DNA from: a virus
IMG/VR virus record: IMGVR_UViG_3300041809_000571
Span: 179,841 to 243,840 of that record
Length of the DNA: 64,000 nucleotides
Strand: one strand, 5' to 3'
Under the pieces are notes generated by a model that saw only the letters and a program-made list of their open reading frames with translations, ran no database searches and was not told the origin of the DNA. Shown here piece by piece: positions 9,373-44,681 of the stretch; within the stretch, counting starts at the first letter, position 1; each line of letters begins with the position of its first letter. Position numbers and translations under genes: made by a program.

Positions 9373-9404
9373 CCTCTCGTATGTCATTTCCCGAGTACGA
9401 GAGG
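9373..9404 (+). other. Perfect 9-bp inverted repeat (CCTCTCGTA...TACGAGAGG, 14-nt loop) between the phosphoesterase and HNH genes
   Basis: Seen directly in the sequence; no U-tract follows, so it does not look like an intrinsic terminator. Confidence 0.4.
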
Positions 9405-9420
9405 ATGACAGGAATCACTA

Positions 9421-25823: not shown

Positions 25824-26492
25824 TCACCCCTGAAAATCTTCGTCCGTGATGCCGTCGTATTCCTTAAGCCGCAAAGAGGGAACACCGCCATCCATTACCA
25901 ACTCATAAATACGGGTAGCCGCCTCGGCGAGGCGCTTCTGCCCCGTGATGGCGAGAATGGTGAACCCAAAATCATTGGCAAGGCTGTGCAGCATCGTGGA
26001 CATCCGGGACTGATTCTTCGCCCCGTTGATGTTGTTGAGCGACTCATCCAAGAAGATGGCCTTCGCCAGCTTGAATCTCTTTATCATGATGATGCGAAGC
26101 AGGAAGGCGCATACGTTCTGCACCCCCCCGCCGAAGGTCGTCATGATGGGACCCACCGTCTCTCCCTGCTTGCACAGGAGACGGTAGTTGTACCCCCGAG
26201 CGGTCTCCTTCTTTTCCACAACGAAGGAAATAGGCTCGGGTTCATCCTTGAATACCTGTTGGAGTCCAGCGGTAACGATGGACTCAATCTTGGTGATACC
26301 GTTGGCGCTCACCACCTCTATGCATTTGTCGATAAGGCCCAGTGCCTTCTGGAGGTCCAGCTTCTCCTCTTCAATGCGCTTAATCTTGTCGTTGAGCCGG
26401 GAGATATTGGACTGCTCGTAGACGAGTTGCTGCTCAAGGCGCTTGGCACCAGAACGGAAGGTGGTGATGCGGTTGGTGATGGAGTAGTCCAC
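25824..26492 (-). CDS. ABC/SMC-type ATPase C-terminal lobe (coiled coil + signature-like motif + Walker B); possible C-terminal half of a split Rad50/SbcC-like protein
   Basis: 'FGGGVQNVCAFLL' (signature-like), 'AIFLDESLNNI' (Walker B), 'ILAITGQ' (H/Q-loop-like). No Walker A. Confidence 0.4.
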   Translation of the reverse strand: MDYSITNRITTFRSGAKRLEQQLVYEQSNISRLNDKIKRIEEEKLDLQKALGLIDKCIEVVSANGITKIESIVTAGLQQVFKDEPEPISFVVEKKETARGYNYRLLCKQGETVGPIMTTFGGGVQNVCAFLLRIIMIKRFKLAKAIFLDESLNNINGAKNQSRMSTMLHSLANDFGFTILAITGQKRLAEAATRIYELVMDGGVPSLRLKEYDGITDEDFQG

Positions 26493-26881
26493 TATTTCTT
26501 TCCTTTGAGAAGCTCTTTCAGACGGAAATTACGGCGATACAGCTTCTCCGCCTCTCCCTTGAAGTAGGCGATTTTGGAGGAGAGTTCCTTGTAACTCTCA
26601 TTGTCACAAGGGACGTAGCCGCCCACATAAATAGCCGCACGACGAACCGGCCATAGGTCCATACAGGTAATATCGAGTTTGATAGTGAAGTCCTTGTATC
26701 CGTGACGAATGAGAAAATCACGGAGAACTTCCATCTCCTGACCGCCTACAATGTCAAGCTCCACCCACATCCCATGCCCGCATGAGCAGGTGGTGTTCCA
26801 GCCGTTGTCCCGGAGAAGCTTCACCAATTTGCGGATGGGAGCTTCGATGCCCTCGTAGAACTCGTTAAGCTTTCGGGACAT
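26492..26881 (-). CDS. hypothetical protein (start refined to MSRKLNEF)
   Basis: ORF; the annotated N-terminal extension has odd Ser/Arg-rich composition. Confidence 0.4.
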   Translation of the reverse strand: MSRKLNEFYEGIEAPIRKLVKLLRDNGWNTTCSCGHGMWVELDIVGGQEMEVLRDFLIRHGYKDFTIKLDITCMDLWPVRRAAIYVGGYVPCDNESYKELSSKIAYFKGEAEKLYRRNFRLKELLKGKK

Positions 26882-27092
26882 CCGTAGCGACCGCTGCGGC
26901 AGGTGCTTCTGCCTTGACCGGGACTTGCTTGTTGTGGAAGGTGAGGATGTCATAGCTTCCCGATACCAGCCCGGAAGGATACACAGCGAACACCTTCTCT
27001 CCCTCCAAGGACCGCTTGTTGAGGTGGTCTTTGAGCAGGCGGCTTTGCACCGTCTCAAAATTGTACACTTGCACTTGCTTGGTTGCTGCCAT
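26865..27092 (-). CDS. hypothetical protein (75 aa)
   Basis: ORF. Confidence 0.4.
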   Translation of the reverse strand: MAATKQVQVYNFETVQSRLLKDHLNKRSLEGEKVFAVYPSGLVSGSYDILTFHNKQVPVKAEAPAAAVATDVPKA

Positions 27093-27100
27093 GTGGCTCC

Positions 27101-27274
27101 TTAGTCTGTTGCTGCCAACAGAGTCATGCTCTCAATCCGCTCGCTCGGGGACAATCGCCGCTCCGCCTTTTTCATGGCGAGCTTGAATGTAGCAGCGTGT
27201 ACCTTGAACGAGTCGTAATTGAACCCCCACCGTTTGTGTTCGGTGTTGATTTTGTAGATTCTCACTTGTCTCAT
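27101..27274 (-). CDS. hypothetical small protein (57 aa, MRQVRIYKINTEHKRWGFNYDSF...)
   Basis: Below the track threshold; preceded by GGTATTAAAGAGAAGGGAGTCTT-ATG. Confidence 0.35.
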   Translation of the reverse strand: MRQVRIYKINTEHKRWGFNYDSFKVHAATFKLAMKKAERRLSPSERIESMTLLAATD

Positions 27275-27289
27275 AAGACTCCCTTCTCT

Positions 27290-27901
27290 TTAATACCGGC
27301 TGTATCGGCAATCCAGTTCACAGCCGTCTTCAATAAGAACTTGGATGAACCTCTCCCGGTAGGTTTTGGCAATTTTGGATTCCGGCTGTTCTTGGCGAAG
27401 CTGATTTTCGTCCATCTCCGGGTCCAGCTTGGTGCGGCAGTGGGAACACTCTAAGTGAAACCCACCCTCCCAACTCATGAAAACATTGTTGTGGAGGTAC
27501 TTGTCCGCTAGTGCCTTCTTGAACTCTGGAGACTGCCTCGCCCACGATATCCGCACATTGTAGTGATAAACATCCACGTTCCGAACGTCATCGGACATAT
27601 CGCAGACGAAATGCCGCTCATATTCATTGACTTCAAAATCATCTTCCACGAATCCCTTGATGAGAAGATTGCGCACCTTAACCGGAACGCCCCCGGCCTC
27701 CCACGTGATGGCTTTCTTTCCCCGTTTTATGGCCTCGTCAATCTTGCCATCCAACTCCTTGCGGGTCTTGGGCATGTCGGCTAGACAGTCTTTCTCGTAT
27801 TCCTCCATCCAGCGACGATGCATTTCCTCATCTTTCAAACGTTTCTTTTCGGCCTGTACTTTCAGGTCTTGCTCCTTCTTCAATGCCTGTGAGGCGTTCA
27901 T
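27290..27901 (-). CDS. hypothetical protein (203 aa)
   Basis: ORF. Confidence 0.5.
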   Translation of the reverse strand: MNASQALKKEQDLKVQAEKKRLKDEEMHRRWMEEYEKDCLADMPKTRKELDGKIDEAIKRGKKAITWEAGGVPVKVRNLLIKGFVEDDFEVNEYERHFVCDMSDDVRNVDVYHYNVRISWARQSPEFKKALADKYLHNNVFMSWEGGFHLECSHCRTKLDPEMDENQLRQEQPESKIAKTYRERFIQVLIEDGCELDCRYSRY

Positions 27902-27909
27902 ATGACCCC

Positions 27910-28926
27910 CTATGGTATCAGCCTGAAATCAACCTCAAACAGCCCCCGGCTTATCCGCATGGAAGCGGGGCCGGACAGAGGGGTGATACTCTGAAACACT
28001 GCATCCTTGTCAGTTGACTGCGATAACGCCGAAACCAGTAGTTCGGCGCTGCTGCCGGATGTGGCAAACTTCGCCCACTCGGAAGCCTGTGGACCAAGGT
28101 CGAAGGTTGCCTCGTTGCCATACTTGTCCCGGCAGGAGAGACCCTTCTTGGGGCTGAACTCCACCCGGCTGGATTTCTCACACAGGAGGACGATGCTCTT
28201 CAAAGCGCTGACGAGCCGGATGGCATCCACCGTGGCGACAACTGTTCCCGGCACGTTGAATATCTGGCGCATCGGGTCCGGGGAAGTGTGCGAGGAGAAA
28301 CACCCCACCATTCCATCTTTGTGGGCTACCCAGTATCCGTTTTCACTGATGGTGAGGATTTCCGCCGCACCGCCGCTGACAAAACTGAGAAACGACTTTC
28401 TCGGTTGAAGAACAACGTTCTTTATGGAGTCGGGGACTTGCCACTTGACCACGCCCGCCTGCGTACCGAGGTACAGTTTCCCGTCGCCCAACGAAGGTTG
28501 GTTGGAAAGCTCGGGAAGAGCCTCTACGTCTATACCGGAGAAAACGGCGGGGTCAAGGCGCTCTTTGGCCGGTTCGCCAATGGAGTGATATTTGATGCCG
28601 GTGCTGACTTCCCGGACGGTGTGAACATGCATGAAATTCTTGTAGGGTCCATCCACCGATTCGATACAGACAATGCCCATGGCGTCTACCGACATCTCAA
28701 GGCTGTCCGCCGAGGCTCGCAGGCAGTCCTGCAAGTGGCTGTAAGAAACGAAGTGGCGGACGCCCACGGGGTTGAATCCCTTGGTCTGGATGAAGCTAAG
28801 TGAACTGGACCGGTAGAATGCGGGGGCCTTACCAGCGGGAAGCTGTACCGCCATGTAGGCGCACACGCTGCTGTCAAGAACACCTGACATTTTGAAAACG
28901 GAGGCAAGACTGGATTTCTTTACCAT
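27910..28926 (-). CDS. hypothetical protein (338 aa); speculative sliding-clamp candidate
   Basis: The size and position in the replication module suggest a clamp; no diagnostic motif. Confidence 0.25.
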   Translation of the reverse strand: MVKKSSLASVFKMSGVLDSSVCAYMAVQLPAGKAPAFYRSSSLSFIQTKGFNPVGVRHFVSYSHLQDCLRASADSLEMSVDAMGIVCIESVDGPYKNFMHVHTVREVSTGIKYHSIGEPAKERLDPAVFSGIDVEALPELSNQPSLGDGKLYLGTQAGVVKWQVPDSIKNVVLQPRKSFLSFVSGGAAEILTISENGYWVAHKDGMVGCFSSHTSPDPMRQIFNVPGTVVATVDAIRLVSALKSIVLLCEKSSRVEFSPKKGLSCRDKYGNEATFDLGPQASEWAKFATSGSSAELLVSALSQSTDKDAVFQSITPLSGPASMRISRGLFEVDFRLIP

Positions 28927-29210
28927 TTAACCTCTTCTCCCAAATGGGCTTCGGCTGCCTGTCGGTATGGAGACTGCGTTTCAAGTCTAACCGGCTGCAA
29001 AGGTTTGCCAAAGGTCATCAACACCAGCCACAGATTCCCACTGAACAGGATGCGCAGCCGTTCCCGCCAACTAAGTCTCCACCGGGTAAAAACATAGGGT
29101 TTGGCAATGATAGCCGGGAGAGGGGTGTATTGTGGTTGGTCTTTTGCAATGACGATTTCCTTGCCCTCAAAATAACAGATGTCGGGCAGAACGGGCGAGA
29201 CAGGCTGCAT
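28920..29210 (-). CDS. hypothetical protein (96 aa)
   Basis: ORF; GAGTATTATTCAACGGAGGGAGT-ATG upstream. Confidence 0.45.
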   Translation of the reverse strand: MQPVSPVLPDICYFEGKEIVIAKDQPQYTPLPAIIAKPYVFTRWRLSWRERLRILFSGNLWLVLMTFGKPLQPVRLETQSPYRQAAEAHLGEEVKW

Positions 29211-29237
29211 ACTCCCTCCGTTGAATAATACTCAGAT

Positions 29238-32200
29238 TTATATGGAAATCGCTTCGATGTTGGAAAATCCCGAGTCCCCATCGGCGGAAAGGGTCTGTAC
29301 TCGGAAGGTGTAGGTGTATCCCTTGGGGAGGCTTATGACGATACTTTCGATGGAGCCGTTGTTGACCGTGGAGGCCACTTGCCATGTCACCCCGCCGTCA
29401 ATGGAGGACTGAACGAGGTATCCGCTGGCGAGGTCCGGGCGGTTCTGACTCCACGACAATCCCACCTGCTCCAGATTGGATTGAAGAGGGTTTGGTCCTT
29501 TATCAACGGGAGCAAACAGCGTCGGAGACAAGGGAGCACCGGCATAAGCGCTTTCCGGCTCAAACAGAATTTCACCGCTGGTCACCTGCTGGTTGATAAG
29601 CTTGGTCTTATCCCATGTACCGATGATGGCATTCTGGGAAAGGTCGATGAGCGTTTCATAGGTCAGCCCACTGTTGGTTACAGACCCAAGGAAAATCTGA
29701 CCAGAACGAGTGTTCTCCACATTAGCAAGCCGGACAAACTGAATGTTGTTGGCACCGTAAAGAAGCTGGGAAGTCGTGCTGATTTCCAAGACCGCCTGCG
29801 GAACCAAGTCAGTGGTGCGTACCTGCAAGAGCAAGCAGCCATCCGGCCCGGAGAGAACCAAGACCCGATTGCCGCCGTAGCTCACCGTGGTGAATATTTG
29901 GGTAAAGCTCAAACTGGATATAGACGAGAGATTCAGGGATATATCCGGGTTATCCGAGGTGAGGGGAAGGTCCGGGAGGAAACGGTAAAGGTATCCGTTG
30001 CTCGCCAGCATCAGGGTGTAATCTTCCTCGGTGTGAACCGCATCCAGAACCGTGGGGAGTACTGGTGGAGACGACACGGTGTTCTGCGGCGGCAGGAGCT
30101 TGCGGAAGACACTGGACGGTGGGCTATTCAGGTAAAGGAAGACAAGCACTGAATAGGGGGAGATGTATACCAACCGGTCTTGCCCCTGCGTGGGCGGGCT
30201 GATGACCTGTAGTACCGATACCCGTTTGACGCCGGATAGGTCACTGTAGATGCTCGATATATCCAAGGCTCCCCACTCCATAGGTGGGCTGGGTGCGGTC
30301 ACATTCCGGTCAGCGATATTTCCCCACCACACGGACCGGCTAAGGCTCAGACTGTCGGTGGGAGAAAAATCGTAGGAGTCAATGGGGATAGCGACGAAAG
30401 CTGTTACCGGTGGGTTGACTCCATCGTTTACAACCAAGCTCCACTCAATCGTTTCCCCCTCCACGAGTGCTCCGTTAGTCTCAAAGGTCAGAACCGGGGT
30501 ATCAGTTCCGGTTGCCTGCAACGGTGTTCCTACCGGCTCCGTCCAAGTGTAGGTAGTGAGGTCATCCGCATCCGTATCTCCCGTGATAACCGGAGCGACC
30601 ACCACCGTAGAGTTCCTGTGTCCAACAAGGCCCACGGGCATGGTAATGACCGGCGTCGGGTTGAAAGGAACCACTAATCCTGCGGGAGGAGAAGTGATGG
30701 AATCAATCACCACATATTGAGGCTTAGTGATGGCAAACCCCGTATCCGCAGTGAATCCATAATCTCCCTGCACGGTGGGGATTGAGAAGGTCACTGTACC
30801 AGTGAATTGCAACCCCGGAGGAGAAAGGAGGGTACCGTCAGAAGTTACGGTTACTGTAGCGTTGTTGAACTGGGGGGCGATGTGCAGGCCATAAAGTAGA
30901 ATTTCTTCCCCGGCTGTGACCGTGGTCAGGGAATCAACCTGCACCGTGATAGTGTTGGTTCCCTGCACATACTGAATCCCCAAAACATGCATGGGTGGGT
31001 GATTGGGAGTAACACCTGTGTAGTCTACAGCAACAACCGCCACACCGATGGGGACAGTCGCTCCCCCAATAGTTCTGTCAACAAAAAGTTCAGCGGTGGT
31101 GCCCGAGTTACTCGGGGTGAGGGAGACATGGGGAGCATCCCCCGTGGGAACTTGCAGAGACCACGTGAACTGAATGGTGTCTCCCGTGTCCGGGTCATAA
31201 GTCCCACTGGCATCCAAAAGGAAGGGGTTGCCTCGAAGCACTGTTCCACTCAAAGGAGTCAATTCCACGGTGGGTGGAACGTTGAAGTGGGAAACGTAGT
31301 ACGGGGTTGACTGTAGGGGTGGAGACCCGGAGAATCCTGTGTTCGCCTCTCCAATCACCGCCCACAAGCTTTCATCGTCAACAACAGACTTAGTGCCCCG
31401 CAGCCACGTAAGGCTGAGGGCGGCGTATGTGGCAGGACTGATAAGCCCCAGTGTAACGGGGTTAACTTCTGCCGTGTAGAAAGGCCAAGCCACGGGGGTG
31501 ATACCCCAGTGAGCAGTATCCTGCGGCGGAGGAAGCAACGGGGTCCAATTGGTGGTATCAGTGACCGGAGAAGCTGCGGAATAACCCCCCAGATTGAGAT
31601 AATAGACGGGGATTTGTACCGTCTGCCCGGCGAGGTAACTCAGGAGGGGATTCCACGGAGCGGCGATGCTGACCGCCGTGGTCACTTCCCAGTTAGCACT
31701 GAGATTAAGAGGAAGGGCATTCTCAATCAGGGTAGACCCATCACTGCCCGGAGCCAGAGTGGCGGTAACCGAAATTCCCTTTACCACTACCGGGAATTGG
31801 GCGATAGCAGCGGAGAGGGTGATTTCCCCATTGATGATGATGGTATTTCCCGACACCACCACAGGACCAACGGCGGTTGTGTCAAAGGCAACCTGAATGG
31901 CACTTCCCGCTGAGCCGCTCACTTGGGCGGTGAAAATGATTCCCTGTGTATTTAATGTAGCCTGTGTATCCAACGAGGGTGGTAAGTTCTCGGGGTTTCC
32001 CACAACATGATTGAGAGCCACATAAAACACAGGAACCGCTGAGATATCGTTTAGTTTGTAGGTCAGCGTAGAAGACCACTGTCCCCGATTGACCATAGGG
32101 ATTAGGCAGAGATAATCGGTGCCATTGTACACCACCCGGTCATTGACGGCATAGCTGTCCTGCCACTGGGGAATAATTGTGAGATTTGAATATGACCATC

Positions 32201-33509
32201 CTCCCCGCTGATTGTAGACCGGGGAAAGAAGGTAGGAGATGCTCGTTCCCTGTGTTGAAGACACGGATAGAGCCGCCTGCATTGCGGAGCCGCCCAACGT
32301 AGAGCCGGAACTGGTTGTCCAATTCCAAGCCGGGGGAGAATCGGCAAGGGTGCTATAACCGATGAGGATGTTACCAACGATGGTGTTGGTTTGAACTCCC
32401 TGTGTAAAGAAGACCAAGGAAACGGTGCGGTTGCTACCCACGGGGAATACGGTCAGTCGGTTATCGGTGTAGCGCCCGGTGAATGTAGTAAGAATCTCAG
32501 TGCTCCCCCAAACAGTGCCGGGAGGAGAAAAGGAGACCACCCCGTCAATCTCATTGATGGAGAAGGTCTGGTCCTGAAACGTCACATTCTTGGGGTGACT
32601 CTCGTAATAGACCTCCACCGTAGTTCCATCCTGACAAACAGCGGATGTGGAGCCAAACACCGGTCCACTACGGGCAGGAGCGGACGCCAATGCCACAGGT
32701 GGTACAGCTATGGTGTCGTTAGGTTCAAGTTGGAAACCCAACAGGGAGTTACCCGGCAACCATGTGGCAAATCCCGACTCATACGCCGGGGGACTGATGG
32801 ATTGGGAGTAATCCGGGTATGGGACGTTGGCGGTAAAACTAAAAGAATTGGAACCGGTGACAGTGACACTAGTCCCGTTAAGGAATTGGGCAAGCTGCAA
32901 CCCCGAAAAGGAGACAGGCACTCCCGCTTGAAACAGGTTGTATCCAGTGACCGTGAGGACGCCGCCAATTATAGAGATGTGGGTGATTTCACAAACTGTG
33001 GGAATCTGGTCCACCACCACCGGATTGACTACTGCTGCAACCGCAAATGACCCAGAGGACAGACGGCAAACATCGTAGCCCTCCCGGACGGCGGAGGCAG
33101 TAGCAAGGACATGAGGACCGGTAAGCGTGTAGGGGGGACTACCCTGAGTGTCAAAGGTAAACTTGATGAGGTCTACCGGAAAAACTTGAGAGGTGGATAG
33201 CGACTCGGGAGGAGAGTAGCTACTCCGGTTATCCTGTGTCCCAATGATGTGAATGTACCGGCTGCCGTCATAAGCAATGACCGGGTCAAAAGATTCGTTG
33301 AGGTTGGGAAAGATGTACTCCGCTACCTGTGTAAAGCTCCACCCCGGACCGGGGTCCGGGGGGACGGCGTTGGAACGAAGAATGACAAAAGAATTGGTAG
33401 CCGGGCGAACCTGACTGACCACAAAGAGAGTTCCACTCACGTCTACGAAGGCAGCATTGCCCTCGTAGAGTTCGGGGGACCAAGTCGTGGTATCAAGCAG
33501 TGTCTTCAT
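29238..33509 (-). CDS. Large Thr/Ser/Val-rich virion protein (1423 aa) with a C-terminal fibronectin type III domain; tail fibre or host-recognition candidate
   Basis: Beta-strand-rich T/S/V/G composition. C-terminus 'LSWSQNRPDLASGYLVQSSIDGGVTWQ...YTYTFRVQTLSADGDSG' is FN3-like. Confidence 0.5.
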   Translation of the reverse strand: MKTLLDTTTWSPELYEGNAAFVDVSGTLFVVSQVRPATNSFVILRSNAVPPDPGPGWSFTQVAEYIFPNLNESFDPVIAYDGSRYIHIIGTQDNRSSYSPPESLSTSQVFPVDLIKFTFDTQGSPPYTLTGPHVLATASAVREGYDVCRLSSGSFAVAAVVNPVVVDQIPTVCEITHISIIGGVLTVTGYNLFQAGVPVSFSGLQLAQFLNGTSVTVTGSNSFSFTANVPYPDYSQSISPPAYESGFATWLPGNSLLGFQLEPNDTIAVPPVALASAPARSGPVFGSTSAVCQDGTTVEVYYESHPKNVTFQDQTFSINEIDGVVSFSPPGTVWGSTEILTTFTGRYTDNRLTVFPVGSNRTVSLVFFTQGVQTNTIVGNILIGYSTLADSPPAWNWTTSSGSTLGGSAMQAALSVSSTQGTSISYLLSPVYNQRGGWSYSNLTIIPQWQDSYAVNDRVVYNGTDYLCLIPMVNRGQWSSTLTYKLNDISAVPVFYVALNHVVGNPENLPPSLDTQATLNTQGIIFTAQVSGSAGSAIQVAFDTTAVGPVVVSGNTIIINGEITLSAAIAQFPVVVKGISVTATLAPGSDGSTLIENALPLNLSANWEVTTAVSIAAPWNPLLSYLAGQTVQIPVYYLNLGGYSAASPVTDTTNWTPLLPPPQDTAHWGITPVAWPFYTAEVNPVTLGLISPATYAALSLTWLRGTKSVVDDESLWAVIGEANTGFSGSPPLQSTPYYVSHFNVPPTVELTPLSGTVLRGNPFLLDASGTYDPDTGDTIQFTWSLQVPTGDAPHVSLTPSNSGTTAELFVDRTIGGATVPIGVAVVAVDYTGVTPNHPPMHVLGIQYVQGTNTITVQVDSLTTVTAGEEILLYGLHIAPQFNNATVTVTSDGTLLSPPGLQFTGTVTFSIPTVQGDYGFTADTGFAITKPQYVVIDSITSPPAGLVVPFNPTPVITMPVGLVGHRNSTVVVAPVITGDTDADDLTTYTWTEPVGTPLQATGTDTPVLTFETNGALVEGETIEWSLVVNDGVNPPVTAFVAIPIDSYDFSPTDSLSLSRSVWWGNIADRNVTAPSPPMEWGALDISSIYSDLSGVKRVSVLQVISPPTQGQDRLVYISPYSVLVFLYLNSPPSSVFRKLLPPQNTVSSPPVLPTVLDAVHTEEDYTLMLASNGYLYRFLPDLPLTSDNPDISLNLSSISSLSFTQIFTTVSYGGNRVLVLSGPDGCLLLQVRTTDLVPQAVLEISTTSQLLYGANNIQFVRLANVENTRSGQIFLGSVTNSGLTYETLIDLSQNAIIGTWDKTKLINQQVTSGEILFEPESAYAGAPLSPTLFAPVDKGPNPLQSNLEQVGLSWSQNRPDLASGYLVQSSIDGGVTWQVASTVNNGSIESIVISLPKGYTYTFRVQTLSADGDSGFSNIEAISI

Positions 33510-33527
33510 GTTCCGGCCACTCCTACT

Positions 33528-34346
33528 TTAAGACGGCAATAGACAAGATTCAGCCATTCGGGCTTCTCGTTTTTTAGCTTCCCGATTTTTGGCAATCTCA
33601 GACATTTTGGCACAAAACTCCGGGCCAAACTTTTTACCCTTTTTAATTTTAGACATATTGACACGGTACTCGGGGCTGGTGTTCGCCTTCCTGACAGCCT
33701 CAAGTGTCCTAGCATAATTTTCCTCTGACCAACCCTTCTTTCCTGCTACTATCGCTTTAGCGAGAGTTTCTGGATTATTCCAAATCCCTTTCCTTGCCTC
33801 AGCCGATTTGGCCTGAATTTCGGGGGTATGCAACCGTTTTACGGCCTCCACTGCCTTTGCGTGCTCTAGGGGGTCTGACAGTCGAACCCTGTTGGCCTCA
33901 GCCAGATTAGCCCGAGCTTGAGGGTCGGTCCACCCTTTCTCAAGACCTTTAACCATCCGAGCACGCATTATAGGGTCAGCCATAGCTTTTCTGATGGACT
34001 CAGAGGTTTTCTTACGGGAAGATTCGGTATGCGGCCCTGTGAACCCCTCCCCTCCCCGGCATATGTTATAACCATACTCGGGGTCTTGAGCTTTTAAGAA
34101 TTTAATAAATTCCCGTTCAACTTCATTGAGTTCTTCCCGAGTCTGAATATCTGACCGGAGGGCGTGGATGGACCAAATAGAGGGGTCTGAGTGTGCTCGC
34201 ATAGACTGATAAAGGCGAGATTGGTTTGAGATACCTCTTTGGGCGTGGTGAAACTTCTGCTGAAGATATTTCTTTAGATTGTTCCCCTTATGCTGACCGA
34301 CATAGTACTTACCGGTCTCGTGGTTAACAATGAGATAAATGAACAT
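33528..34346 (-). CDS. GIY-YIG homing endonuclease with NUMOD3-like C-terminal DNA-binding repeats
   Basis: 'IYLIVNHETGKYYVGQ', conserved R, 'ELNEVEREFI', 'YNICRGG'; repeated '..RKAMADPIMRARMVKG / RANLAEANRVR / AKSAEARKG' modules. Confidence 0.8.
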   Translation of the reverse strand: MFIYLIVNHETGKYYVGQHKGNNLKKYLQQKFHHAQRGISNQSRLYQSMRAHSDPSIWSIHALRSDIQTREELNEVEREFIKFLKAQDPEYGYNICRGGEGFTGPHTESSRKKTSESIRKAMADPIMRARMVKGLEKGWTDPQARANLAEANRVRLSDPLEHAKAVEAVKRLHTPEIQAKSAEARKGIWNNPETLAKAIVAGKKGWSEENYARTLEAVRKANTSPEYRVNMSKIKKGKKFGPEFCAKMSEIAKNREAKKREARMAESCLLPS

Positions 34347-34389
34347 AGCAACCTCCCTCTATCTATAATACCATTGGAAAGTTGTTTTT

Positions 34390-36951: not shown

Positions 36952-36985
36952 AAGTCCTCAATAAAGGGGATAGAAAGCGGAAAAA

Positions 36986-37633
36986 TTACGGTTTCGGCTC
37001 TTCCGTGGGCCTATCCACCGCCTCGCTGTTTCTGGGAAGTAGCCTAAAATGCTCCAAAATGACCTCGTTATCAAGGCCAACTGGCAACATCTCCAACGTC
37101 GGACTTCCGGCTCTTAGAATTCCAAACTCATTATTTTTCTTACGTTTATCCACAGACTCCTTGGCTATCCTCATCCGCACAGTGCGAGCCTTACGCCGCT
37201 CCTTTTCGAGTAATTCCTCCATCTGCACGGCATATTTGACTTTCTGGGCGGAAAGCTGCTCCAGACCATATAGGGAGGTTCCCACCATGGCGAGAATGGG
37301 AGAAATGTCGGTTTTGTCCTCCTCGTCCATGTTGTCAAGCAGCCGGGAGAGCCACTTCGCCGACTCCTTCATGGAGTTTAACGCTTGCACAGCACACCCC
37401 ATCTGAGAATAGACCCGTTGGGAGTTTAGCCGAAGAAGTGCTCTCTTTTGAACTACTTCCGTCTCACCATCCTCTTTAACATCCAACTCTGCTCGGAATT
37501 TGAAGGGGAGTTCCCCCGCCTTCAATCCCATCTGTTTTCGGGTCTTAAAGGTCCTGACGGGGGAGTGAGCGCACCTGTGGTGGTCGCCGTAGTAGGAGTT
37601 CCCGCACTTCGCACATATCTTGTTCAAGGACAC
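36986..37633 (-). CDS. hypothetical protein with an N-terminal CxxC...H..C Zn ribbon (GTG start)
   Basis: ORF. Confidence 0.45.
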   Translation of the reverse strand: MSLNKICAKCGNSYYGDHHRCAHSPVRTFKTRKQMGLKAGELPFKFRAELDVKEDGETEVVQKRALLRLNSQRVYSQMGCAVQALNSMKESAKWLSRLLDNMDEEDKTDISPILAMVGTSLYGLEQLSAQKVKYAVQMEELLEKERRKARTVRMRIAKESVDKRKKNNEFGILRAGSPTLEMLPVGLDNEVILEHFRLLPRNSEAVDRPTEEPKP

Positions 37634-37649
37634 CTCTATAAGGTATCCA

Positions 37650-40600
37650 CTAGGCAGGTTTCTTGAGGTAATGTTCGGGGATGTGGTCTATGGCTCGGTC
37701 GTGAAGGCACATCCGTATGCCATCATGAAGCACCCAGACGGACTTGTCCCCCTTACCCAGAGTGATGTCGATTTGCATAAGGGTAAGCTGGTCGGCCCCA
37801 GAAATATCGTACACGGTTACACCGGGAGGGGGTCCCTTGGTTTCCGGTACTTCGGGGGTGGAATCTACCACGGGAGGAGCTACAGTGGGTTCTGGCGGGG
37901 CTACAGGGAGGTTCTCCGCTGCGACGAACAGATTGAGGGTACCTTGGGTACCCCCAACCCCTTCTGACGCTTCCTGTGGTGAATTCCACGAAATCTCCAC
38001 TTTCAGGGGTTCGGGGACATAGCGTTTCACCGGAGCGTCTAAGGGCAGAGAACCGAGAGGTCCATATATCAAAGCTGCCGGGTTACGGTCAGCCGGTCCA
38101 AGGCCCATCCGAGTTTCGTACTGTTCCAAGGTCTCCAACTTCGCATCATCCTCGTCGGGCATATTGTCAATACGCCAGAATTCGTCAAGCTGAATGGCCG
38201 CTATGAGCGCCCGCTGGATTTCCTTGGGGTCGGTCTGGGGTACGACTTCTTTCTTCCCCTTCTTCTTGTTGAAGCACCACCAAGCCGCTTGGAAGGCCCG
38301 CTCGTGCAGGTTTTCCTTGAGGAAGGCTTTTGCCTTTTCGACCCGAGCTTCCACCTGAGAAGAGATAGCCTTTATCAGGTTCTTGATGGTCGCACTATCC
38401 CACTCTCCGGGGAGGTACCTGTCCATACCGGATACCCTTGTCCAAGCGGCGGGGATGTGGTCATCATCGCCGGTCACATGATGCTCAACGTCCCAACTGG
38501 GTCCATATTCCGCATCCGCTTCGATGGGCACCTGCCACTTCATAATCTGGTGCAGCTTGCGCAACTTCATCATGCGAGTGATGCGGGGGAGAACGAAAGG
38601 CACGTATTCATTCTTCACGGAAAAGTCGATTTCATCGTGAACCGAACAATGCAACATGAAGATGGTTGCAATAAGCGGGTCTGCTTCAACCCACTGGCGA
38701 ATCTTGTTGAGAGACATCCGCATGAAATCCCCGCAGAGTCCTTGAATGGGGGCATTGACGCTGACCCGCTGAATCTTGCCCATGAACTTGCTGTAGTCCA
38801 TGGCATTGCGAACACCAGTGTCGGGGTTCTTCCACATGGAATTGGCAAGGTTGAGATACTCTTTCCACCGGGGGTCATCAGCCTCCTTAAGCTCCTTCGA
38901 CTTTTTCATGTAATCCCGATACTGCCATAGGTTCTTCTTTTCCTCCTCGTTCGGGACATGAATGTGTAGCGCCTTCATGGCGGAGTCAAACTTGATGACT
39001 CGATTCGTAGTGGTGGTGCAGATGAGTTGGTCTCGGGCAATTGCTTGTTTGCGCTGGCAAAACTCGAAGAACACCGGCACACCCTTCCAGTAGTTTTCCA
39101 CCATTTCCTCACACCGTTGGAAAGTGATGTTGGGGTCCTGCTTCTTCATGTTCTCGTAAATGGTGTAGGCGGTGCCGCCGTAAAGCAGAGCGAAGTTGAT
39201 AATCTTCGCCAAGTCACGCAGGTGCTTAGCACGGTAGTTAGGACTCTTGGGGTCGGAGAATTCCGGGAAGACCTTGCTAGCAGTGAGGGAGTGGAAGTCA
39301 CCCTTGCCATGCAAAAACTCATTGATGAATTCCGGCTCACCCGAGCAGTTGGCGGCGGCACGCATTTCGATATTGCCGTAGTCAACGGTGAAGAATGTCC
39401 ATCCGGGCGGCGAGTAGAACAAGCAGCGGAGATTGACTCTCTGGTTGGCATCAATCTTACCATTCTCGATAAGGAAACCAAACTTGTCTTTGCAGGTCTG
39501 ACAGCCCGGCACCAGACAAACGGTATAACCCATGTACTGACCAATATGATTGTGGATAATACCGGGAGCCTGTTTACGAACCTTAATCTTTTTCTTTGAG
39601 AAAGAAGAAAGTGTAGGAAGGGGAGCAGTAAATTCTCCCTTTTTAAGTAGCTCCGGTTCTCTTGTATATATTTCTGGAACCCAATAAGCGGGCCTACCTA
39701 CATCTCCGGGGTCTTTCTTGAATTTCTTATTCTTCCCCTCATGGGCATAAACCCACCCTGTGATTTCAAAAACCCGAGGCCAGTCTTCCCCCTTATCAAT
39801 GACATTGGAGTTGACTACGAGACGAGAGTCCTCGTCCGAATCTTTTACCTTTAGTTCGCTCATTTTGTGACTACAGCGACCCTCACAAGGCGTGTCTCTG
39901 TAAACAAAATCAGGCTGTGTTCGATATGTACCGTTGGTAAAATCATACCTGATTTCTAACCATTTGGTTGGGACATATTCCCCGCAAACACCGATATAGT
40001 GAGAAAGTAGGGAGTCCCTGCCAAGATAATTCTTACGCTTCTCCTTCAAGGCCGTATCCAACCGTTGCTGAGCATAATCCTTCATGAGGGCGACCTCTTC
40101 ATCAGTCAAGGTCAGCCTTGGTCTGTCTCTCTCAGGTATGTCATCAAAAATTGTCTCTTCCTCTTCAACCTCCCTGAAACACGATGGGTGAAGCTCTTCC
40201 TCGGTGTGGGGTTCTATCTGGTCTTCGGGAATCTCATCAGGAATGAGGACATTTCCCGTCACCTTCCACATCAAGTAACCTTCCACCTTTTTCACAGCTT
40301 GGCTGTTAAGACCGAACCCACCATCCTTGTAAAAGTCACCGCCAGCGGAGGACAGGCGTCCCCCGGCGACCACATTCTGTTTAAGGTATATGCGGGCAGT
40401 GCCATCACTCGGGTCATAGTGGAGGCTGGAAGGGTGTAGGGAGATGTAGCTCTTGTAGTCTGAGAATACTTCAAGGAACTCATCCTCCGGGTGCAGCTTG
40501 TGAAGGTCTTCCACCACCTCGGCATCACACGAGGCTTTCTTAACGCCACTCTTCCCGCCATCCGTCATCTTGAGAGGAGCATAGCCTTTGACATCAAAGA

Positions 40601-41810
40601 AAAGTATGCGCAGGTCGTCATTGGAATCGGGATTAAAACGGTCATCAGGTAACACCACGCCGTCATCAGTGGCATTCTCTTTGTACCCAGCCGCTATGGC
40701 AAGGTCATACAGTTTCTTCTGAAATTGAGCGAGAACCCGTTGGTGCCCTTTGACAGTGCGGGTATGACGGTCGGTGTCGATAAGGAACCGCTGCCGTTCA
40801 ATCCAAGTGATGGAGTCAACAAGCTCATGGTCGATGCGATGCACGGTCTTGCGGGTCCGGGCAAGGGGATGGAGCTTTTCCCATAGAAGCCAAGTACAAA
40901 TGGCATCAGAGGCGGCGTAATAAAGGGCGATGTCTACGGGTATCCAACTGAAAGGAACAAAGTGCTGCTTAAGCCCGTGCTTATTCTCTTTCTTCTGCTC
41001 CAAGGTGCAGGAGCAGAAAGGAGAGCCGTTGTGGGGACAAGTATCCGCCTTAACCTTGGCGATTTCCTCAAGCTCGATTTGCTCAATACCCAGCAGGTTG
41101 CTGGACAACGCCTTCAAGCCGCCGCTATCCCCCGTATAGAACTGCTTGTCTTCCATGTCAGCTTTGGGGTCATCAATGTATTGCAAAACCTGCACATCTT
41201 CAAAGTGAGGATAAGGACGGAAGACAATGCCCATGGTGAGGCGCATGACTTCCCGGTCGAATTTCCCATTGTAAAAAACAAGGTGTACCTGATTGAAGAA
41301 CGGTTGGAGAATTTCAGCACATATTCTGCGGTCTATGTTGCGGGCCGGGGTGGTGAGAGCAAGGTCCTGAAACTCATGGGTGATGGGGATGTATATGCCC
41401 TTGACACCATCGGCAGAGAGACAGATGCCGGAAATATCGGTCTTGATTTCATACTCTTGGTGGTAGGAGCCATCAGGCAGCTTCACCATCCTGATAAAGA
41501 GCCGGGTGTCAAGGCTCACGTCTTCCGTATCCAATGCTACAACCGGTTCGGTGAACCCGTAAAACTCAAAACGGGGAGCATTGGTGAGAACCTCGTCAAC
41601 CCACTTCTGTAGGGCTTCGGGCGTATCGACAATCTCGAACGCCTTCTTACTCATCCAATCTTTTTTGACTTTGGCTACACCACCGCCAGCGGAAAGCTCG
41701 GCGAGAATCTCCCGGAACATGGTGCGAATGTCCCGGAGCTTGACGACTTTCTTCTTCTTAACCTTCTTCAAATCGTCGGTGGTGACTTTTTCTTTCTTAA
41801 CCTTTGCCAT
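37650..41810 (-). CDS. Family A DNA polymerase with 3'-5' exonuclease, large internal insertions and a ~350-aa C-terminal extension (1386 aa)
   Basis: Exo I 'VVALDTEDV', Exo II 'YNGKFDREVM', Exo III 'YYAASDAICTWLL'. Pol motif A 'DYGNIEMR', motif B 'RDLAKIINFALLYGG', motif C 'HCSVHDEIDF'. Confidence 0.8.
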   Translation of the reverse strand: MAKVKKEKVTTDDLKKVKKKKVVKLRDIRTMFREILAELSAGGGVAKVKKDWMSKKAFEIVDTPEALQKWVDEVLTNAPRFEFYGFTEPVVALDTEDVSLDTRLFIRMVKLPDGSYHQEYEIKTDISGICLSADGVKGIYIPITHEFQDLALTTPARNIDRRICAEILQPFFNQVHLVFYNGKFDREVMRLTMGIVFRPYPHFEDVQVLQYIDDPKADMEDKQFYTGDSGGLKALSSNLLGIEQIELEEIAKVKADTCPHNGSPFCSCTLEQKKENKHGLKQHFVPFSWIPVDIALYYAASDAICTWLLWEKLHPLARTRKTVHRIDHELVDSITWIERQRFLIDTDRHTRTVKGHQRVLAQFQKKLYDLAIAAGYKENATDDGVVLPDDRFNPDSNDDLRILFFDVKGYAPLKMTDGGKSGVKKASCDAEVVEDLHKLHPEDEFLEVFSDYKSYISLHPSSLHYDPSDGTARIYLKQNVVAGGRLSSAGGDFYKDGGFGLNSQAVKKVEGYLMWKVTGNVLIPDEIPEDQIEPHTEEELHPSCFREVEEEETIFDDIPERDRPRLTLTDEEVALMKDYAQQRLDTALKEKRKNYLGRDSLLSHYIGVCGEYVPTKWLEIRYDFTNGTYRTQPDFVYRDTPCEGRCSHKMSELKVKDSDEDSRLVVNSNVIDKGEDWPRVFEITGWVYAHEGKNKKFKKDPGDVGRPAYWVPEIYTREPELLKKGEFTAPLPTLSSFSKKKIKVRKQAPGIIHNHIGQYMGYTVCLVPGCQTCKDKFGFLIENGKIDANQRVNLRCLFYSPPGWTFFTVDYGNIEMRAAANCSGEPEFINEFLHGKGDFHSLTASKVFPEFSDPKSPNYRAKHLRDLAKIINFALLYGGTAYTIYENMKKQDPNITFQRCEEMVENYWKGVPVFFEFCQRKQAIARDQLICTTTTNRVIKFDSAMKALHIHVPNEEEKKNLWQYRDYMKKSKELKEADDPRWKEYLNLANSMWKNPDTGVRNAMDYSKFMGKIQRVSVNAPIQGLCGDFMRMSLNKIRQWVEADPLIATIFMLHCSVHDEIDFSVKNEYVPFVLPRITRMMKLRKLHQIMKWQVPIEADAEYGPSWDVEHHVTGDDDHIPAAWTRVSGMDRYLPGEWDSATIKNLIKAISSQVEARVEKAKAFLKENLHERAFQAAWWCFNKKKGKKEVVPQTDPKEIQRALIAAIQLDEFWRIDNMPDEDDAKLETLEQYETRMGLGPADRNPAALIYGPLGSLPLDAPVKRYVPEPLKVEISWNSPQEASEGVGGTQGTLNLFVAAENLPVAPPEPTVAPPVVDSTPEVPETKGPPPGVTVYDISGADQLTLMQIDITLGKGDKSVWVLHDGIRMCLHDRAIDHIPEHYLKKPA

Positions 41811-41827
41811 GCTCTATATAGTACTCC

Positions 41828-42508
41828 TTAAATTACCTTTCCATCAGCGATTGCCGCCAACTCTTCTTTGCCCAGCACTTCGGCAAGCCCTACCGTGGCT
41901 TGCAAGTGCAACTCCTGTGGGTCTACCTCATCGCTCCTCTCCGCATCCTTGGCGCTCTTTTCCAGCGTCAACCCAGTGAAGTAGATGCGGATGTAATCTT
42001 CGGCAAGCTCTGCATCCTTGGTTTCCTGAACATCTCGTTGTGCCTTCAAAATAAAGTGCTCCGCAAGGTCCCAGAAGCTTAAAACACCGCCCTCTTCTTC
42101 CTCGTCGTCAACCAAAACATTAGGCATGGAGGGAAGGTTGAAGGTTTTTTCCAGCCAGTAAAGAGCCTGCACCCGGCTGAGTTCCATATACTTGGATACA
42201 AAGGTTACATTGTCATACAACATGCTGCCGGGCGGACATCCAAAGCAATAAGCGTCATTGGTGCGGGAATAGAGGGTAAAAGACGGCGTGCGGTCACGAC
42301 CATGAAAGGGGCAGCGGATGACCGTATCACGATGACCGGTAAGCTCCGCTACGACATCCTGAAACAGGATTTCGTTGTTGGCTCGTTCCCACCGGTCAGG
42401 ATTGATGCCCCCATACGAGCTATGATAGAAGTTTTGAACGGCATCCCGCTCAAGACTAACCTCCTGCCCGACAAGCTCTTCGATTGCCGGAAGCTGTTCA
42501 TTTTCCAT
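41828..42508 (-). CDS. Primase zinc-binding domain protein (CHC2-type), stand-alone
   Basis: 'CPFHGRDRTPSFTLY...DAYCFGCPPGS' matches the DnaG zinc-binding domain consensus CPFH.E.TPSF...CFGCG.GG. Confidence 0.65.
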   Translation of the reverse strand: MENEQLPAIEELVGQEVSLERDAVQNFYHSSYGGINPDRWERANNEILFQDVVAELTGHRDTVIRCPFHGRDRTPSFTLYSRTNDAYCFGCPPGSMLYDNVTFVSKYMELSRVQALYWLEKTFNLPSMPNVLVDDEEEEGGVLSFWDLAEHFILKAQRDVQETKDAELAEDYIRIYFTGLTLEKSAKDAERSDEVDPQELHLQATVGLAEVLGKEELAAIADGKVI

Positions 42509-42804
42509 TACTGTGCCTGTTGAAATTGTTCGTAGTCTTTGAGCAAAGACTCACCGTTCTCAAGGGAGGCCATGAGGCTACTCAGGTTCTTTTCCAACTC
42601 CAACTGGGTATCCTCGGCGAGCTTCTTAAGCTCCTCCACCGACAGGCGCTCGGGGTTGCTGATGTTAAGTGCCCGGAGGTTATCATGGACCTGCTTGAGC
42701 TTCTGCTCCTCAACCCCCACTTCCCGGTTAAGCTGGTCTCGTTTGCCTGCCAAGGTTTTCACTCTTGCTTGAGCAGTGCGCAACTGTTCTTGGATGTCGG
42801 GCAT
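42508..42804 (-). CDS. hypothetical coiled-coil protein (98 aa)
   Basis: ORF; CAGTATTATAGTGAGGAGGATTAC-ATG upstream. Confidence 0.5.
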   Translation of the reverse strand: MPDIQEQLRTAQARVKTLAGKRDQLNREVGVEEQKLKQVHDNLRALNISNPERLSVEELKKLAEDTQLELEKNLSSLMASLENGESLLKDYEQFQQAQ

Positions 42805-42835
42805 GTAATCCTCCTCACTATAATACTGATTCCGG
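42805..42835 (-). promoter_or_regulatory. Promoter-like motif family B: CAGTATTATA(G) followed by an SD, or directly by ATG (leaderless-like)
   Basis: The plus-strand 'ATAATACTG' or a close variant recurs upstream of minus-strand starts at 21520-21546, 24500-24530, 27275-27300, 29211-29240, 34347-34378, 48885-48925, 49701-49727, 52562-52592, 58431-58447 and 19874-19905. Confidence 0.45.
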
Positions 42836-42843
42836 CTGGCCCC

Positions 42844-43440
42844 TTAAGGTCTAATCCACTCAAATTTGAGTATATTCAACAGTCGAATTTGATGGGGGGT
42901 GGGGTCAATATCATCTTCGCATAAAAAGGTCCCCCAGCATGTACCATCGCATAACCTCCAAAGGTCTTGGCGAGAACCCCGATGAAACATCAGAGCCAGC
43001 CTAAAGGAGATGTGACGTGAAGCATCCTCCTTACGATAACTGAAATCTGCAAGAAAATACTTCCCTTTTGGGACATCCTCCGTAAGGACAGTGTATGCAT
43101 TCAAACCATCAAGAGAGAAACTAAACTGAAAGAGCGCCGGGGAGTCCTTCCGTCTGTCAAATATGGAAACTGTGTTGTGTTTGAAGCAAGGGTGACCGTT
43201 GTGCATCACCCACGGATTGTCGCTCCGCTTCTCATCTCTAATTTCCACATCTCCCGTCACCCACTTACCTTCGGGATGACGTGGTCCTAGATAAACCTGA
43301 ACATCACCAAGTCCAACTTCACGGAGTTTTTTTGCCCAGATTCCCCGTTGGGACAGGAATTCAATTAAGGCAGATTTTCCGGGGTTATCATATGCATCAT
43401 AATCCTTATCCCGGAAATCAGCGCCCTCAAGTTTTCCCAT
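42844..43440 (-). CDS. hypothetical protein (start refined to MGKLEG, abutting the upstream stop)
   Basis: ORF. Confidence 0.4.
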   Translation of the reverse strand: MGKLEGADFRDKDYDAYDNPGKSALIEFLSQRGIWAKKLREVGLGDVQVYLGPRHPEGKWVTGDVEIRDEKRSDNPWVMHNGHPCFKHNTVSIFDRRKDSPALFQFSFSLDGLNAYTVLTEDVPKGKYFLADFSYRKEDASRHISFRLALMFHRGSRQDLWRLCDGTCWGTFLCEDDIDPTPHQIRLLNILKFEWIRP

Positions 43441-43442
43441 AT

Positions 43443-44681
43443 CTACCTCGATTCCGGTTGACAAGACGGGCAGCGTAGCTCCGTGCCACAGTCCGGGCAT
43501 TTCGGTTTGGATTCCTTGGACAGAAGCAACGTCAAAGAGTTAACCTTGGCGTTAGCGGCATCCAGTTCCTCTTCCGTAAACTTAAGCTCACTCTTCTTGC
43601 TGGGGAGCTTCAATGCCTCTGCCAACGAGTTGATGTTCTTAAGCGCCGAGAGGTAGTGAGCAATGACTCCGAGTAGGAAGTTGGCTTCTTGTAGAACACC
43701 CTCCAACTTCTCCCCACACTCCTTGGGGCTTGCTCCCTTTCTTTCGACAATTTCCAACAGGGATAGAACCGCCTGCTTGCGTTTGTACCCCTTAGCCACG
43801 AGGTCCCACTGGGCTATAGTATTGTCAATGCCATGTACCACCTGTCCCGTGACTTCCCGGCGACGGAGGATTTTTACCGCCTCGGCATACATCCGGGCGA
43901 GGCGCTCTTGCTTCTCAATGGGGGATACATCCGGCACAGACAGCTTAAGGACGAAGGACCGCATCTTCGCTATCCGATTCATCCTTGTAAGCGTCTCAAT
44001 CAGTGAGGTCAGCAAGGACTCATAGCTGTTGACCTTTGCCTCATAACCAGACACGGTGTGGGCGGAGTCCTGTGCCGAGGCATTAAACCTCTCAAGTTTA
44101 CCCCGGCGTTCCTCTGCCTCACGGATTTCTTCGGCGAGCGTTCGGGCTTCCCCGTTCTTTTCGGTAATGCGCCGGTTGGCTTCCTTCTTCCCTGCATCCA
44201 ATTTTTCGGTGGAGGCAAAGGCCCCAAGGATGGCATTCAGGTCGTTGGGCTTCCATGCGTCAGGGTCAATGAGAAATTGTGCCTTGTTTTGTTGGGAAAA
44301 GATGGGGTCGATGGTTGTGTCCCCCACTTTGACGGTGCCATACTTGAGCACCTTCATGGGTTCGGGGACACTATCGCCGAGGGCCTTATACTCTATCGGC
44401 TTACCCTTTTCATCTTCACCAATGGCGTACTTGGTGGAACCCTTGCGGGTCCGGGTAGCCTTGATGGGGTCGTTGACACCTTCAACCTCAAGAGTAACTT
44501 CCATCTTCTCGTCTTGTCCATTGCGGACAAAGTCCTGCGGCAGTTCGTTGCGGAACACGCCCCGCAGAGCACGGAAGATGGAGGACTTCCCCTTATTGGA
44601 CGGACCGACGATTAAAGTCAGCCCGTCTATGAGGAGGGAGAAATCCTTCCACGGCTGGAAGTTTTTCCCGGCTAGTTTCAT
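43443..44681 (-). CDS. SMC/Rad50/RecN-type ATPase N-terminal lobe + coiled coil + C-terminal CxxC..CxxC (zinc-hook-like); lacks a signature motif and Walker B
   Basis: 'FSLLIDGLTLIVGPSNKGKSSIF' (Walker A), long coiled coil, 'KCPDCGTELRCPSCQ' at the C-terminus. Confidence 0.5.
   Translation of the reverse strand: MKLAGKNFQPWKDFSLLIDGLTLIVGPSNKGKSSIFRALRGVFRNELPQDFVRNGQDEKMEVTLEVEGVNDPIKATRTRKGSTKYAIGEDEKGKPIEYKALGDSVPEPMKVLKYGTVKVGDTTIDPIFSQQNKAQFLIDPDAWKPNDLNAILGAFASTEKLDAGKKEANRRITEKNGEARTLAEEIREAEERRGKLERFNASAQDSAHTVSGYEAKVNSYESLLTSLIETLTRMNRIAKMRSFVLKLSVPDVSPIEKQERLARMYAEAVKILRRREVTGQVVHGIDNTIAQWDLVAKGYKRKQAVLSLLEIVERKGASPKECGEKLEGVLQEANFLLGVIAHYLSALKNINSLAEALKLPSKKSELKFTEEELDAANAKVNSLTLLLSKESKPKCPDCGTELRCPSCQPESR

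Follow-up and report, generated by a model that had tools for sequence, protein, structure and literature searches.

In current models of Rad50, SbcC and SMC (structural maintenance of chromosomes) proteins, a long antiparallel coiled coil connects the two lobes of the ATP-binding cassette (ABC) head, and zinc hook and head communicate through this arm. The phage T4 gp46/gp47 pair is an analogous end-processing complex that hands its substrates to recombination. When halves of the Pyrococcus furiosus Rad50 head or of an SMC head are expressed separately, they assemble in crystal constructs (Rad50cd, PDB entries 1F2T, 1F2U and 1II8; SMC, PDB entries 1XEW and 5H66), but there the separate N- and C-terminal fragments that form one ABC head were obtained by artificially truncating one gene. 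Here, we analyse a 64,000-nucleotide stretch of viral DNA (IMG/VR record IMGVR_UViG_3300041809_000571, positions 179,841 to 243,840 of that record; hereafter the window), in which two genes separated by 17 kb, called the N-half and the C-half below, are predicted to encode the two lobes of one Rad50-like head (Table 1). In the window the split is natural, and it is conserved and ancient.

The likeness to Rad50/SbcC (in phages, to T4 gp46/gp47) extends from the Walker A N-lobe, the C-lobe with a signature-like motif and Walker B, the long arm made of helices and the zinc motif CPxCG to the linkage with an SbcD/Mre11-type nuclease in relatives and to a context of recombination genes (UvsX, SSB and RuvC-like). 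Rad50/SbcC, however, is a single chain folded around an antiparallel coiled coil, whereas here there are two polypeptides from distant genes and the helix of the C-lobe has only about 60 residues. A broader parallel is provided by the phiKZ-like phages, in which the subunits of the multisubunit RNA polymerase are split: there too, separate loci in a very large genome encode the pieces of what elsewhere is a single-chain enzyme, although the protein family differs. The phiKZ-like phages keep a single-chain SbcC (PMC5105663), and jumbo-phage reviews treat SbcC as a single protein. In the literature we found no description of a naturally split Rad50/SbcC, of a permuted fusion of its halves, of a missing descending arm or of the small companion protein presented below. 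The components themselves are not unknown, since automatic annotation already labels both halves (as 'SbcCD ATPase subunit', 'exonuclease', 'ATPase', 'chromosome segregation ATPase' or 'EcfA2'); the split layout is common to a large, apparently undescribed family of phage proteins.

The window has a G+C content of 53.6% and is part of the genome of a jumbo phage known solely from metagenomes; a search for tRNA genes in its 64 kb found none. The exact N-half and C-half proteins are both present on a 364,142-bp metagenomic contig. The closest cultured relative is Tunturiibacter phage Tunturi_5 (308 kb), with 42–47% protein identity, and none of 50,697 phage records matched the N-half/UvsX region at the nucleotide level in a blastn search.

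Two genes for the two predicted lobes of a Rad50-like head

A sequence-only reading of the window had singled out three open reading frames (ORFs), 43443–44681 (−), 25824–26492 (−) and 8049–9320 (+), all of which are present where it placed them. It took the first for a Walker A lobe with a long coiled coil and a terminal CxxC, the second for a coiled coil followed by signature-like, Walker B and H/Q-loop elements without a Walker A, and the two together for one Rad50-like ABC ATPase. Single-sequence searches of the PDB were too weak to decide on this proposal, and family profiles were required. AlphaFold2 models were built from family alignments and their folds were matched to the PDB with Foldseek; conservation in the N-half was read from an alignment of 42 homologues, and motif invariance across both halves was judged in 40–46 homologues.

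With 33.5 bits (E = 8.6e-8), the N-half exceeds the Pfam threshold for AAA_23, which is 27 bits; it also matches phrog_16465 ('exonuclease') at 2e-17. A regular-expression scan of the protein gave one Walker A, no Walker B and no xGGx signature. In its model (predicted local distance difference test, pLDDT, 77; predicted template-modelling score, pTM, 0.32), a β-rich P-loop lobe is followed by helices spanning residues 160–246, 253–313, 319–357 and 359–389, with breaks at a conserved 'PD' (Pro250) and near residues 314–318. The model matches the N-fragment chains of two-chain Rad50/SMC heads (5h67_A, 9a9j_A, 1f2u_C and 3qkr_A). Two relatives (IMG/VR 3300044801_000208 and 3300044823_000365) have an N-half of about 755 residues, with an intein-like insert (C...HN) lodged in the Walker A between GPSxxGK and S. 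Inteins typically sit in functionally critical sites, and their occupation of the P-loop in these two homologues therefore argues that the site matters functionally.

The GTG start of the C-half is confirmed by the family alignment, and the protein matches phrog_15167 at 5e-11; no Walker A was found in it by regular expression. Its family profile matches Methanocaldococcus jannaschii Rad50 (PDB entry 3aux) over the full length (E = 8.5e-5), residues 8–201 aligning with 171–364, a stretch that runs from the coiled-coil stub through the whole C-lobe. The similarity of ABC transporters to the same profile is confined to the Walker B/H-loop stretch. The model (pLDDT 84, pTM 0.63), a helix of residues 3–62 followed by an α/β lobe, matches the C-fragment chains 5h66_B, 1ii8_B, 3qkr_B and 1f2u_D, with E values of about 1e-8 and TM-scores of up to 0.74.

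The Walker A is thus found in the N-half alone, and the signature and Walker B in the C-half alone. As the two models fall on N-fragment and C-fragment chains, respectively, each ORF is, on these predictions, one lobe of a Rad50/SMC-type head, with a complete nucleotide-binding site in neither. What had been read in the N-half is borne out by its motifs, its AAA_23 match and its model; in the C-half, the fold and the Walker B with its glutamate are present, the signature-like motif has a glycine for the usual serine, and the place of the H-loop histidine is taken by a glycine.

Searched with the C-half profile, a library of 1.84 billion representatives, clustered at 50% identity, yielded 1540 relatives of the C-half at E ≤ 1e-10. 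The best 150 of these are almost all stand-alone proteins of 197–267 residues, the exception being the fusion P0507 described below. An assembly artefact or a pseudogene was considered and rejected in view of the size of the family and the uniform length of its members. In BFVD, the C-half model also matches short, stand-alone proteins that resemble a Rad50 C-lobe, namely the '16.8 kDa Rad50-like protein' of Spodoptera frugiperda ascovirus 1a (153 residues) and a protein of Megavirus courdo7 (175 residues), as well as short 'recombination exonuclease' proteins of Listeria and Salmonella phages; judging from these model matches, split Rad50-like genes may extend more widely, including to large DNA viruses of eukaryotes.

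Table 1. Positions in the window of the split Rad50-like genes, their motifs and the genes discussed with them.
Feature	Position	Strand	Details and evidence
Rad50/SbcC-like N-half: N-lobe, helical arm and C-terminal zinc motif	43443..44681	−	412 aa; AAA_23, phrog_16465, AlphaFold2/Foldseek
Walker A GPSNKGKS (aa 26–33)	44583..44606	−	Regular expression; G26, G31, K32 and S33 invariant in 42 homologues
Candidate Q-loop region FSQQNKAQFL	44271..44300	−	Q131 invariant in alignment; candidate assigned from position only
N-half helical arm (aa 160–389)	43515..44204	−	AlphaFold2 secondary structure
Hook-like zinc motif CPDCGTELRCPSC (aa 395–407)	43461..43499	−	C-terminal end of N-half; CPDC/CPSC
Rad50/SbcC-like C-half: 60-aa helix and C-lobe	25824..26492	−	222 aa, GTG start; phrog_15167, profile against PDB, AlphaFold2
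C-half N-terminal helix (aa 3–62)	26307..26486	−	AlphaFold2; aligns with coiled-coil stub of 1ii8_B and 3qkr_B
Signature-like motif FGGGVQN (aa 120–126)	26115..26135	−	F120, G121, G122 and N126 invariant; aligns with LSGGEQ of M. jannaschii Rad50
Walker B and catalytic Glu, AIFLDE (aa 145–150)	26043..26060	−	Regular expression; D149 and E150 invariant
H-loop position ITGQK, Gly replacing the switch His	25938..25952	−	Family alignment
Metallophosphoesterase, partner candidate of the sequence-only reading	8049..9320	+	phrog_284 'exonuclease', 5e-47
HNH endonuclease adjoining 8049–9320	9421–9873		Pfam HNH, 4e-13
UvsX/RecA-like recombinase, immediately upstream of N-half	44689..46029	−	Pfam RecA 1.1e-14, phrog_97 6e-29
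RuvC-like resolvase homologue	46040..47005	−	42% identity to Tunturi_5 gp184 'RuvC-like Holliday junction resolvase', E = 8e-79
SSB homologue	47537..48511	−	32% identity to Tunturi_5 gp185 'single strand DNA binding protein', E = 5e-26
98-aa helix–loop–helix companion of N-half	42508..42804	−	Conserved position across related loci

Co-occurrence and fusion of the halves

All ten IMG/VR contigs of at least 100 kb that bear a C-half also bear an N-half, as do two smaller contigs, and both halves are present in Tunturi_5, in the 485-kb uncultured phage LR745208 and in Microbacterium phage Magritte. A fused version in relatives had been envisaged by the sequence-only reading, and two kinds of fusion were found. 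In P0507 (647 residues, from two samples), the order is permuted: the C-half (residues 4–196) comes first and is followed, after a junction of about 15 residues, by a complete N-half (residues 215–639, E = 3.9e-16) that again ends in CPxC. A compact ABC head allows such a link, from the end of the C-lobe to the beginning of the N-lobe. In Bacillus phage 0305phi8-36, gp8 (769 residues) unites a calcineurin-like nuclease (Pfam Metallophos, residues 10–239) with a full N-half (residues 344–759, with a CPTC end), and gp5 ('chromosome segregation ATPase'), three genes downstream of gp8, is a C-half (E = 1.3e-17). This gp8 is listed among the Mre11–Rad50 fusions, such as Mimivirus R555, by Yoshida, Claverie and Ogata (2011), who describe one P-loop NTPase segment as 'not observed' in the Bacillus phage fusion protein (PMC3175470). 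The 'missing' segment is the separate gp5. The nuclease is fused in 0305phi8-36, whereas there is no nuclease fusion in the window phage.

We may wonder whether the halves are functionally related at all, or whether each acts by itself, the N-half as a self-sufficient protein with a P-loop and a coiled coil, the C-half as a small ATPase-like or structural protein. Their genes lie 15–132 kb apart on related contigs, in different clusters and in some cases on opposite strands, and are adjacent in none, as would be expected of unrelated proteins. Yet neither half has a complete nucleotide-binding site, the large contigs carry both without exception, and the halves are fused in P0507 and arranged as in an operon in 0305phi8-36, so that independent functions seem to us extremely improbable. 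The pairing of N-half and C-half is well beyond chance, as judged from co-occurrence and fusions. The complementary motifs, the fold matches, the strict co-occurrence and the two independent fusions support the proposal, made from the sequence, that the two ORFs make up the two lobes of one Rad50/SbcC-like ABC ATPase.

Candidate nuclease partners

Neighbourhoods of the N-half were compared in 42 related IMG/VR loci. In 33 of them, a gene for a 334-residue SbcD-type phosphoesterase is found downstream on the strand of the N-half, at a distance of 1–4 kb; one further locus has it 6.6 kb away. The member of this family in Tunturi_5 is gp177, annotated 'SbcD-like'. A hidden Markov model (HMM) of the family also matches the nuclease part of 0305phi8-36 gp8 (8e-19) and the product of the gene upstream of the P0507 fusion (6.5e-27). 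The usual nuclease of the split system is thus this SbcD family, encoded beside the N-half in most relatives, and it differs from the calcineurin-like phosphoesterase 8049–9320 that the sequence-only reading had put forward as the partner.

In the translation of 8049–9320, the motifs DxH, GDxxxxD, DNH, H and GHxH are visible by eye. The protein has no match to any Pfam family, Metallophos included, at E ≤ 1, none in NCBIfam or among PDB sequences, and none to the SbcD-family HMM. It could nevertheless serve as the partner in this lineage if it had replaced the SbcD-type gene beside the N-half. The Mre11-like motifs I–V seen by eye and the match to phrog_284 fit such a role, and the subclade of the window indeed has no SbcD-type gene behind the N-half, its place being taken by a primase zinc-ribbon gene (loci L027–L030); none lies within the window either. 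However, homologues of the phrog_284 family occur in Bacillus, Staphylococcus, Bacteroides and other phages (34–170 kb) without a neighbouring Rad50-like gene, and there is none in Tunturi_5. Moreover, a 97%-identical copy of 8049–9320 and an SbcD-type gene are found together, about 79 kb apart, on two related contigs with local synteny; as the two genes coexist there, 8049–9320 is not a simple replacement of SbcD. The gene also lies 34 kb from the N-half, adjoins an HNH endonuclease gene and is far more conserved than its neighbours: in the region 7894–9722, three IMG/VR contigs (L135–L137) match the gene with 96% DNA identity and 97% protein identity, compared with 53–74% protein identity for the flanking genes. 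This excess of identity over the flanks, together with the adjoining HNH endonuclease, suggests recent exchange or unusually strong constraint. On this evidence the proposed partnership is not upheld, and we regard a replacement of SbcD by 8049–9320 in this lineage as decidedly unlikely.

In one other relative (IMG/VR 3300018019_000005), the SbcD-type gene is not beside the N-half and is apparently flanked on both sides by minus-strand ORFs that look GIY-YIG-like by eye. Mobile endonucleases may have helped to disperse the Rad50/SbcD module.

Recombination genes and a small companion

The recombinase gene upstream of the N-half is a conserved neighbour: a UvsX-like gene is found there in 39 of the 42 loci. 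The RuvC-like and SSB homologues of the window lie on the same strand at higher coordinates and were identified through their Tunturi_5 counterparts (Table 1); a Pfam search with the RuvC-like protein gave no match. Just downstream of the N-half, a protein of about 98 residues is encoded in all 38 loci that extend far enough, as well as in Tunturi_5. It has the conserved motif L(R/K)xLGIxxPE, and family searches with it gave no match. A homologue also stands behind the permuted fusion P0507 in a phage of 33% G+C (8.4e-7), and there is a weak match to gp7 of 0305phi8-36 (1e-3). This companion may be a further subunit of the complex.

These neighbours also bear on whether the pair might be the SMC-like module of a defence or counter-defence system, akin to Lamassu LmuB or to OLD/Gabija. 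The N-half does match the PADLOC models LmuB (7e-9), Old (2.5e-7) and AriA (5.6e-7), and, among PDB proteins, its profile matches an ATPase of the OLD family and also a DUF3732 protein (9hqu), the CPMCG of which aligns with the CPxCG of the N-half. These matches lie mainly in the generic P-loop region, with the exception of one LmuB model, which the N-half follows over positions 22–341 of 611, up to a mid-protein CxxC. LmuB, however, is a single chain with both lobes and acts with the effectors LmuA and LmuC, whereas the C-half has no PADLOC match and no LmuA/LmuC-like or Toprim-OLD partner was seen; the setting here is one of replication and recombination, with UvsX, SSB, RuvC-like and SbcD as conserved neighbours and an SbcD–N-half fusion in 0305phi8-36. 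A defence role is accordingly very unlikely in our view.

An arm with a zinc motif at its free end

The N-half ends in a hook-like motif in which Cys395, Pro396, Cys398 and Gly399 are conserved, CPxCG being the conserved C-terminus of the whole family. A profile of the last 70 residues of the family finds the P. furiosus Rad50 zinc hook (PDB entry 1L8D, 2.9e-4; PDB entry 6ZFF, 2e-3). In the archaeal Rad50 profile (NCBIfam PRK03918), residues 164–402 of the N-half are colinear with positions 194–445 of 878, and we take position ~445 to be the approximate place of the P. furiosus hook cysteines. The zinc hook of Rad50 sits at the apex of a hairpin, where the zinc ion is shared by two chains; here, the motif lies 5–15 residues from the C-terminus, at a free end, even in the permuted fusion. 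Most N-half members have four potential ligands of their own, usually C4 or C2HC, arranged as CxxC-x5-CxxC in the window and as CPKCGKxxEHxC in most others, and a minority end just past CPxCG. From its sequence, the motif would be expected to bind zinc.

According to the AlphaFold2 models, the arm helices of the N-half span about 230 residues, compared with about 60 for the helix of the C-half, which presumably pairs with the base of the N-half arm. Because the C-half carries just this short helix, the split is no plain cut through an arm of two strands. The sequence-only reading had placed the split exactly at the hook, and this is right for the N-half, which ends there with its CPxCG and its match to 1L8D; the C-half does not supply the descending arm that a cut at this point would leave. 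A mutual-information analysis of covariation inside the N-half arm (116 sequences, effective number 85) gave no clean contact pattern.

Tentatively, and with more doubt than confidence, we suggest a Rad50 with a single-chain arm per protomer, carrying its zinc motif at the free C-terminus and lacking a descending helix. Such an arm could be completed in three ways: the three N-half helices might fold back on themselves, two N-halves might pair in parallel, or the 98-residue helix–loop–helix protein might join in as the third subunit of the structure. If true, any one of them would be a hitherto unseen SMC-like architecture, and the covalent antiparallel coiled coil would be dispensable for Mre11–Rad50 function.

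Proposed mechanism and points against it

We propose, with a probability of roughly 0.8, that the two proteins assemble into one ABC head, which dimerizes around ATP and acts with an SbcD-type nuclease in the processing of DNA ends and hairpins. The N-half would supply the Walker A P-loop, the candidate Q-loop, the helical arm and the terminal CPxCG, and the C-half its short helix, the signature-like motif and the Walker B with the catalytic glutamate. The lobes would join non-covalently, in the manner of the engineered two-chain heads, by forming a shared β-sheet, and the helix of the C-half would pack against the arm base of the N-half; two composite heads would then dimerize around two ATP molecules. 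With an SbcD/Mre11-type nuclease as its partner, such a complex would serve replication and repair that depend on recombination by processing the ends and hairpins of DNA, feeding the UvsX recombinase, the SSB and the RuvC-like resolvase encoded beside the N-half. Physical assembly, ATPase activity and a nuclease partner in this genome are what we infer from the comparisons above.

Several observations weigh against this proposal. Single-sequence matches to solved Rad50 structures are weak (E = 0.04), and the descending arm of canonical Rad50 is absent, not merely separated. The serine of the canonical signature is a glycine throughout the C-half family, and the H-loop histidine is replaced by glycine in the C-half of the window and its subclade, so that at both positions a residue of Rad50/SbcC gives way to glycine in the window protein. 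ATP hydrolysis may consequently be slow or work differently, as far as these substitutions can tell. Finally, scanning all ORFs of the window with the SbcD HMM revealed no SbcD-type gene, and none of the best 120 of 227 matches in a database search with the SbcD profile lies on the 364,142-bp contig. The two related contigs that share the 8049–9320 gene and carry an SbcD-type gene about 79 kb away nevertheless suggest that the genome of the window has such a gene outside the window.

The glycine at the H-loop position leads to a related question, namely whether the complex of the window subclade binds ATP and hydrolyses it poorly, working mainly as a DNA tether or clamp and not as a processive nuclease motor. 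In the C-half family, the H-loop histidine is retained in about 80% of the members, while 27, including the window subclade, have 'TGQ' for 'T/SHQ' and ten others have 'TQ(E/V)'. The Walker A, the aspartate of the Walker B and the catalytic glutamate are intact, however, and the glutamine that follows the glycine may compensate for the lost histidine. We would call a mainly tethering role unlikely, and we retain end and hairpin processing with an SbcD-type nuclease as the probable function of the split complex.

This is a large natural family without the covalent link between the lobes and without the descending strand, yet it is tied to the SbcD nuclease and to recombination genes. It offers researchers on SMC and Rad50 mechanism a ready-made system in which to ask what the coiled coil and the hook are for, and cultured examples are usable for genetics and biochemistry (Tunturi_5, Bacillus phage 0305phi8-36 and Microbacterium phage Magritte). 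The annotation of the half-proteins can be corrected, and the ATPase segment reported as missing in 0305phi8-36 is accounted for.

Other genes near the two halves

An ORF at 42844–43500 (−) lies between the N-half and the 98-residue companion gene and, as called, overlaps the end of the N-half by 58 nucleotides; with its start at an internal ATG (43440) the two would not overlap. No homologue of it was found in the 42 related N-half loci, and it has no family match.

The C-half belongs to a replication cluster with the order sliding clamp, C-half, gp21-like gene, Toprim primase, gp23-like gene and clamp loader. The gp23-like gene, 21914–23221 (−), encodes 435 residues and has a conserved place between the genes for the Toprim primase and the clamp loader; its product is 37% identical to Tunturi_5 gp23 ('exonuclease recombination-associated protein'). 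It was considered as a nuclease and rejected, as it has no match in Pfam, PHROGs, NCBIfam, PADLOC or PDB sequences.

The primase is itself apparently in two genes, a DnaG-type CHC2 zinc ribbon at 41828–42508 (−) (PF01807, 1.2e-8) and a catalytic Toprim part at 24516–25256 (−) (phrog_47, 2.7e-8; Toprim_2, 0.009). Each piece lies downstream of a Rad50 half: the zinc ribbon, the N-terminal piece, is three genes past the N-half and the Toprim part, the C-terminal piece, two genes past the C-half. The position of the zinc-ribbon gene downstream of the N-half is particular to the window subclade.

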